DNA from: a virus
Lineage: Duplodnaviria > Heunggongvirae > Uroviricota > Caudoviricetes
DNA length: 42,461 nucleotides
Virus record (IMG/VR): IMGVR_UViG_2703719365_000009
Strand: one strand, 5' to 3'
Part shown: positions 41,437 through 42,078 of the stretch, in pieces
How positions within the stretch are numbered: the first letter of the stretch is position 1
Layout of the letters: every line of letters begins with the position of its first letter
The notes under the pieces: generated by a model
What the model saw: the letters and a program-made list of their open reading frames with translations, nothing else
The model's database searches: none
What the model was told of the DNA's origin: nothing
Position numbers and translations under genes: made by a program

Positions 41437-42078
41437 ATGCGTAAATTATGTGCTGTTATTTTGTCCGCAGTAGTCTGGCAGGTCGCCGCTGCTACGCCAG
41501 CGAGTGCAGCAGAACATCAGTCCACGCTGAGCGCGGGGTATCTCCATGCCTCGACGAACGTTCCCGGTAGTGATGATCTGAACGGGATTAACGTGAAATA
41601 CCGTTATGAGTTTATGGACGCGCTGGGGCTGATTACGTCCTTCAGTTATGCCAATGCTGAGGATGAGCAAAAAACGCGCTACAGCGATACCCGCTGGCAT
41701 GAAGATTCCGTGCGTAACCGCTGGTTCAGCGTGATGGCGGGGCCGTCTGTACGCGTGAATGAATGGTTCAGCGTGATGGCGGGGCCGTCTGTACGCGTGA
41801 ATGAATGGTTCAGCGCGTATGCGATGGCGGGTGTGGCTTACAGCCGTGTGTCGACTTTCTACGGGGATTATCTCCGCGTAACTGACAACAAGGGGAAAAC
41901 GCACGATGTGCTGACCGGAAGTGATGACGGTCGCCACAGCAACACGTCTCTGGCGTGGGGGGCTGGCGTGCAGTTTAACCCGACCGAATCCGTGACCATT
42001 GACCTTGCTTATGAAGGTTCCGGTAGTGGCGACTGGCGATCGGATGCATTTATTGTTGGTATCGGATACCGTTTCTGA
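41437..42078 (+). CDS. lom: Lom-family outer membrane protein (Ail/Lom beta-barrel) with internal 14-aa tandem duplication
   Basis: 213 aa with signal peptide; closely resembles lambda Lom; contains WFSVMAGPSVRVNE twice. Confidence 0.9.
   Translation: MRKLCAVILSAVVWQVAAATPASAAEHQSTLSAGYLHASTNVPGSDDLNGINVKYRYEFMDALGLITSFSYANAEDEQKTRYSDTRWHEDSVRNRWFSVMAGPSVRVNEWFSVMAGPSVRVNEWFSAYAMAGVAYSRVSTFYGDYLRVTDNKGKTHDVLTGSDDGRHSNTSLAWGAGVQFNPTESVTIDLAYEGSGSGDWRSDAFIVGIGYRF
41722..41805 (+). repeat. Exact 42-bp tandem duplication inside lom (two full copies, then 10 bp of a third)
   Basis: TGGTTCAGCGTGATGGCGGGGCCGTCTGTACGCGTGAATGAA at 41722-41763 and 41764-41805, in frame. Confidence 0.95.

Follow-up and report, generated by a model that had tools for sequence, protein, structure and literature searches.

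The lom gene of the analysed window, the whole 42,461-nucleotide stretch of caudoviral DNA, carries an exact 42-bp tandem duplication. It encodes an outer-membrane protein of a prophage in an E. coli O157-type strain. With a probability of about 0.85 we read this allele as a microhomology-mediated tandem duplication (MTD), formed by slippage at a 10-bp repeat pair in a single recent event at a low-frequency hot spot. It is an ordinary and known class of mutation in a known gene family, which recurs rarely at the same spot in other strains, and the allele itself is already present in public databases. The features of the gene and of its repeat tract are the following.

41437-42078, + strand: lom coding sequence, 213 aa (open reading frame; PF06316; Ail/Lom-family 8-strand barrel of the O157 prophage Sp9 type)
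41722-41763, + strand: copy 1 of the 42-bp unit, codons 96-109, encoding WFSVMAGPSVRVNE
41764-41805, + strand: copy 2 of the 42-bp unit, codons 110-123, identical to copy 1
41806-41815, + strand: third copy of TGGTTCAGCG, the 10-bp microhomology, the others being at 41722-41731 and 41764-41773
41733-41741, + strand: GATGGCGGG, 5' member of a nested pair, present again at 41775-41783 because of the 42-bp duplication
41823-41831, + strand: GATGGCGGG, 3' member of the nested pair, encoding the MAG of strand beta5

Tandem Repeats Finder and direct reading both give an exact tandem repeat at 41722-41815, with a period of 42 bp, 2.2 copies, 100% matches and 0 indels. This array has a score of 188, the runner-up in the 42-kb window one of 44. 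The tract contains 52 successive matches at lag 42, for which the expected number in a random 42-kb sequence is about 1e-24 (approximately 4^-52 x positions x lags, our own arithmetic), and therefore a chance origin of the run is ruled out. The repeat starts at codon 96 and in frame ((41722-41437) mod 3 = 0), the reading frame stays intact, and the gene encodes WFSVMAGPSVRVNE twice. An initial annotation of this DNA had described an exact, in-frame 42-bp tandem duplication adding a second WFSVMAGPSVRVNE to the gene, followed by 10 bp of a third copy. Both statements agree with the repeat analysis and the reading frame, as 41806-41815 is indeed TGGTTCAGCG, the start of the unit. The end coordinate 41805 given there is correct for the two full copies but not for the tract proper, which reaches 41815.

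A J fragment precedes the gene, and the N-terminus of the side tail fibre gene stf follows it. The lom product matches the PF06316 profile with E=1.7e-128 (426.6 bits, cut-off 23), the match being broken into two stretches at the duplication, at profile position 112. Reading the sequence by eye, we find a signal peptide (MRKLCAVILSAVVWQVAAATPASA, followed by AEHQ...) and a C-terminal aromatic beta-signal (...GIGYRF). The gene had first been taken for lambda lom. This identity had to be rejected, as the window protein shares only about 44% identity with lambda Lom (PDB 9wso, chain C), which reads RYVSVMAGPVLQISKQVSAYAMAG in the segment concerned. A much closer relative is the 600-bp lom of prophage Sp9 in strain Sakai (ECs_1807, 199 aa), all bases of which are identical to the window allele, the 42-bp insertion being the sole difference. 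Hundreds of O157 genomes likewise match the window query with 100% identity, over 600 bases only and in two pieces. These matches point to the lom of E. coli O157:H7 prophage Sp9, in the equivalent J-lom-stf position, as the right comparator.

This single-copy gene contains the substrate from which the duplication could arise. In single-copy lom the sequence TGGTTCAGCG occurs twice, once at each end of the unit (a 10-bp repeat with period 42 at lom position 286), and nested beside this pair lies a second one formed by GATGGCGGG (9 bp, period 48, lom position 297). When direct repeats of 8 bp or more were sought within 120 bp, three only were found: these two pairs, which are the two longest short-range direct repeats of the gene, and an 8-bp repeat with period 13, which is out of frame. 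The window allele has the structure described for MTDs (PMC8639346; bioRxiv 10.64898/2026.02.28.708716). In the alignment the copy is perfect and head-to-tail, with no bases gained or lost at the junction; the spacing of the microhomology in the progenitor (Sakai Sp9 lom, and the single-copy allele of CP044350.1) equals the duplicated length; and the microhomology is present in n+1 copies (MH-X-MH-X-MH), with TGGTTCAGCG at 41722, 41764 and 41806. Slippage, already favoured in the initial annotation, is the best mechanism in view of the 10-bp microhomology on both sides of the unit in the single-copy allele.

The ancestral 199-aa allele reads ...CGC TGGTTCAGCG-32 nt-TGGTTCAGCG CGT... After the second TGGTTCAGCG had been copied, the nascent strand could re-pair with the first TGGTTCAGCG 42 bp upstream, and the interval would then be copied again, giving MH-X-MH-X-MH. 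Substrate and product can both be read in existing alleles, and from them we infer the slippage step itself. The duplicated allele would also result from an unequal exchange between sister strands at these 10 bp. The microhomology stems from the protein: strands beta4 and beta5 both begin with W-F-S and both hold M-A-G, written in the same codons, so that the event is necessarily in frame. Together, the two nested repeats (10 bp with 42-bp spacing, 9 bp with 48-bp spacing) generate alleles of +42, +84, +48, -42 and -48 bp. The event belongs with the classical cases in E. coli in which slipped misalignment between short direct repeats leads to duplication or deletion, as reportedly described by Albertini in 1982 and by Lovett in 2004.

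An assembly error would give the same sequence if the isolate truly had one copy and the assembler had added a 42-bp unit owing to the 8-13 lom paralogues per O157 genome. Such an error is made conceivable by the many places at which lom occurs in O157 genomes and by the nature of the window, which is an entire draft short-read contig (LGBG01000062.1, GCA_001281905.1) ending in repeated prophage DNA. We judged the copy number in this assembly by agreement between assemblies. A second assembly, GCA_013757955.2, encodes the identical 213-aa Lom on a 1,213-bp contig that is 100% identical to window 41220-42432, and the protein (WP_054421910.1) is represented by three GenBank accessions (KOZ41931.1, EOO4662987.1, EOO4734204.1). 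Furthermore, two closed chromosomes and 105 contigs show the same type of event, the whole tract, only 94 bp long, lies within the length of ordinary reads, and a perfect tandem copy bounded by microhomology cannot come from collapsed paralogues. The initial annotation had named an assembly error as the point to be excluded, and we consider this explanation extremely unlikely.

The age of the duplication can be judged from the complete chromosome CP044350.1. Minus the 42 bp, and hence with one copy, this chromosome is 100% identical to window 39216-42461 (3.2 kb), and the identity reaches from mom across the strain-specific Mu/J junction, the J fragment and lom into the start of stf. Other assemblies with the same truncated 217-aa J fragment have a lom of 199 aa, except two, in which lom is cut by the contig end (L017) or by a Mu-type insertion (L020). 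The single-copy allele was found on at least 1,000 contigs, compared to two for the window allele. The identity of CP044350.1 despite its single copy, Mu/J junction included, shows a duplication that is real, single and recent, as its perfect copies had suggested earlier. It is younger than the Mu insertion and restricted to a small sublineage, having occurred once, and recently, in bacteria which already carried the Mu-like prophage in the neighbouring J. A literature search on tandem duplications of lom gave no paper on this locus or its hot spot, and a preprint on the Pas sRNA does not concern lom.

Instead of having formed in place, the duplicated segment could have been recombined into this gene from a lom paralogue or prophage in which it was already duplicated. 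In favour of this, lom genes occur in several copies and are mosaics, and E. coli does have a second duplicated allele in circulation. However, inside the unit as well as to the left and right of it, the window allele matches Sp9 lom and the sister genome with 100% identity, and the sole other duplicated allele found has G, not A, inside both its copies. A donor with the exact junction was found neither in 5,426 complete E. coli genomes nor among phage records, where the exact 40-nt junction had no match in INPHARED. A codon-degenerate junction pattern, whose positive control worked, also gave 0 matches in GTDB species representatives and 0 in IMG/VR viral contigs. With flanks identical to the sister genome and no donor found in these collections, we rejected import from a paralogue, which we regard as hardly credible, and maintain slippage within the Sp9-type lom.

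Comparing lom alleles across strains for their copy number, as the initial annotation had suggested, revealed genes with one, two and three copies. For the +42 junction the query was a 40-mer without any 28-mer in common with single-copy alleles; as these searches need an exact 28-mer, the counts are lower bounds for diverged alleles. Two of the 5,426 complete genomes contain this junction, PC-NDM34 (Tanzania) and AB56 (UK), both closed. Their lom has 642 bp (protein WP_136061152.1) and is about 8% diverged from the window allele, yet it is duplicated at the same site. This allele has its own G in both copies where the window allele has A, and its duplication is therefore independent of that in the window. 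The PC-NDM34-type duplicated allele is found on 105 contigs, and on the same background a 227-aa protein (P0010) contains three copies, as confirmed in the DNA. A three-copy form of the window allele itself was not found. Junction-specific searches in the same 5,426 genomes detected -42 in one, -48 in at most two and +48 in none, again as lower bounds for diverged alleles. In a survey of Lom homologues, the further classes are:

-14 aa (-42 bp): bounded by the WFS repeats, 7 backgrounds, P0072 on 70 contigs
-16 aa (-48 bp): bounded by the MAG repeats, 7 backgrounds
+16 aa (+48 bp): bounded by the MAG repeats, 2 backgrounds, P0030 on the O157 Sp9 background

In DNA alignments, the breakpoints of the +48, -42 and -48 alleles all lie exactly at one of the two microhomologies. 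Recombination between lom paralogues could make the numbers of backgrounds too high as counts of independent events. P0072, the -14 aa allele on 70 contigs, is labelled Shigella dysenteriae at NCBI. A second clade of Lom proteins (207 aa) has the same pattern, with +14 aa in P0179 and -16 aa in 191-aa alleles, one of which (P0204) occurs on 899 contigs. Lom diversity beyond the E. coli set was supplied by a two-seed profile (lambda Lom and OmpX), and a profile seeded with window-type, Citrobacter and lambda Lom together with OmpX recovered nearly the same E. coli Lom set. P0120 (185 aa) had been considered as a -14 allele and was rejected.

Other rearrangements were seen in the same gene family. 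Three E. coli Lom proteins (P0028, 299 aa; P0029, 275 aa; P0031, 259 aa) have internal duplications of about 60-100 aa which re-use whole strand blocks. Other in-frame deletions start from the same WFS motif (P0067, P0097, P0100), and one starts from just before it (P0066).

The initial annotation had also proposed a length-variable locus. This is true in a weak sense, since copy numbers of 1, 2 and 3 and the reciprocal deletions exist, but each junction occurs in at most two of the 5,426 complete genomes. The distribution is that of a family-wide, low-frequency indel hot spot which becomes visible through the depth of E. coli sequencing, and not that of a fast-switching locus. We also rejected a phase-variable contingency locus, all four junctions being too rare in the complete genomes; moreover, a 42-bp unit in frame does not switch the reading frame, and the ORF is intact.

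Nevertheless, selection could act on such variation at a slower pace. The microhomology pairs of beta4 and beta5 might serve as a low-rate, reversible switch which extends loop L2 by 14 or 28 aa or leads to the loss of Lom (-14 or -16 aa), with an advantage whenever host immunity, a phage or a bacteriocin targets Lom. The same-site events recur on many backgrounds and all in frame, one to three copies exist, some variant alleles are widespread (105, 70 and 899 contigs), the structural model sets the additional unit at the cell surface, and MTDs are known for quick reversion (PMC8639346). The in-frame outcome, however, is automatic with spacings of 42 and 48 bp, no junction is found in more than two of the complete genomes, and clonal hitch-hiking also spreads a few alleles, for example the -14 allele labelled Shigella dysenteriae. 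The Shigella dysenteriae lineage is known for gene decay. We therefore regard selected surface variation as unlikely. That the nested pairs are kept as a built-in reversible switch (L2 +14, +28 or +16 aa, or a knock-out of the barrel by -14 or -16 aa) seems very unlikely to us. If it were true, a surface protein that immunity, phages or bacteriocins target would show standing variation in lysogen populations, and the window allele would be one 'on-variant' state. The low-frequency hot spot with a single slippage event in the window remains our preferred reading.

What the additional 14 residues do to the protein was addressed by modelling. The duplicated unit aligns to OmpX Y62-D75, which we take to be the membrane part of strand beta4 and the periplasmic turn. 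A closed antiparallel barrel with both termini in the periplasm has no room for an odd ninth strand, and therefore one of the two copies must be extruded. AlphaFold, run with 102 sequences from three clades, gave a model with a pLDDT of 71.5 and a pTM of 0.64, the other four models having a pLDDT of 59-66; a model from a shallow alignment (28 close Lom sequences) reached a pLDDT of 36 and was discarded. With moderate confidence, the 213-aa Lom is predicted to have eight main strands and a hairpin in loop 2. Residues 92-106, the end of loop 2 and most of copy 1, have a pLDDT below 50 and are looped out extracellularly in the model. Residues 106-120, the tail of copy 1 and copy 2, form strand beta4, residues 121-124 the periplasmic turn, and beta5 runs from residue 125. 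The best Foldseek matches of the model are Ail (3QRC/3QRA) and OmpX (1QJ9), with target-normalised TM-scores of 0.83-0.84.

The initial annotation had expected a lengthened beta-strand and turn. The model does not agree with this, as it keeps eight strands and places most of copy 1 in extracellular loop 2. The duplicated Lom is thus probably still assembled, with a surface loop L2 altered by a disordered 14-residue extension, and the duplication is most likely neutral or mildly deleterious. Persistence of the analogous PC-NDM34-type allele on 105 contigs fits with tolerance. The -14 and -16 alleles, on the other hand, should lose a strand and be dead. With regard to further modelling, PDB 9wso chain C belongs to a solved structure containing lambda Lom, which would be the best template for the duplicated protein. 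This entry was not among the 50 best Foldseek matches listed for the AlphaFold model, and a literature search found no paper on the structure. A paper on tail spikes restates only that Lom is a beta-barrel expressed in lysogens.

Upstream of lom, a transposable prophage of the Mu type, complete and Sp18-like, interrupts gene J of the lambdoid prophage and measures about 39.4 kb (window 1337-40715). Among its genes are those for Gp45/46/48, baseplate J and an invertase, as well as com and mom, and it is flanked by a 5-bp target duplication (ATGTT at 1332-1336 and 40716-40720). The J fragments around it are:

1-1336: 5' part of J
40716-41369: 3' part of J

As J is disrupted, the lambdoid prophage should be without the capacity to make infectious tails. 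The Mu/J junction is absent from the 5,426 RefSeq complete genomes and identical in CP044350.1. In GCA_034474905.1 a Mu-like prophage lies in the same J in opposite orientation, 21 bp upstream (L017 1440-1520). On the metagenome contig L020 (723-2155), where lom is truncated, the product of the adjoining gene matches PF00665 (rve) and PF22483, i.e. integrase-core and Mu-transposase domains. Judging from these two insertions, the J-lom region seems to be a repeated target of Mu-like phages. Identity to Sakai Sp9 is only 89% for the 5' part of J (window 1-1339), compared to 99.9-100% for the 3' part together with lom and stf (40716-42461). This marks a mosaic joint within J, near or at the Mu insertion point.

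Two further regions of the window deserve mention. The spacer between lom and stf (42079-42230) measures 152 bp in the Sp9 type, compared to 21-64 bp in the other lom loci fetched. At its end a strong hairpin (42182-42211) with a T-run behind it resembles a terminator. Rfam gave no match in the window at gathering thresholds; the hairpin could be only the lom terminator or belong to a small RNA. Between the invertase and com/mom (36430-39079), the Mu-type prophage encodes a 679-aa SASA-esterase/DUF6645 protein followed by DUF1378 and DUF826 genes. This trio, an unusual cargo for a Mu-type phage, is reminiscent of the NanS-p region that Stx phages have downstream of stx.

The practical value of these observations is small. 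The allele is, however, a clean and datable teaching case of an MTD in a bacterial surface-protein gene, with the progenitor preserved in a sister genome. Lambdoid-prophage lom is to be regarded as a predictable indel hot spot (+42, +84, +48, -42 and -48 bp), and annotators and typing schemes should not call such alleles errors. In combination, the 42-bp insertion and the Mu-in-J junction could mark this O157 sublineage. If the duplicated Lom assembles with a longer loop 2, as the model suggests, it would represent a natural loop-insertion variant of an Ail/Lom adhesin.

In comparison with known systems, the Sakai Sp9 lom (ECs_1807) shares the J-lom-stf position and the flanks with the window allele and is without its additional 42 bp (14 aa). 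Lambda Lom (the 206-aa chain C of PDB 9wso), OmpX (1QJ8/1QJ9) and Ail (3QRA) share PF06316 and the 8-strand fold with the window Lom. Besides the distance of lambda Lom given above, OmpX is only about 39% identical to the window Lom. Unlike the Sp9-type Lom, lambda Lom and OmpX have no WFS...WFS repeat and are therefore without the 42-bp microhomology substrate. Contingency loci such as Neisseria opa also owe a change of repeat number in an outer-membrane protein gene to slippage. In contrast to them, lom has no standing multi-copy tract, its period of 42 bp is in frame and gives no on/off frameshift, and its variants are rare (about 1e-4 per lom copy). The MTD class fits best: here too a single-copy segment with a flanking microhomology pair (10 bp, 42 bp apart) is converted to MH-X-MH-X-MH, the three-copy allele of the PC-NDM34-type background would correspond to further expansion, and the reciprocal deletion goes via the same pair. 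The lom product is in frame, and there is no mechanistic difference from the class. Specific for lom are the two nested pairs, which come from the sequence similarity of beta4 and beta5 in the Ail/Lom barrel.
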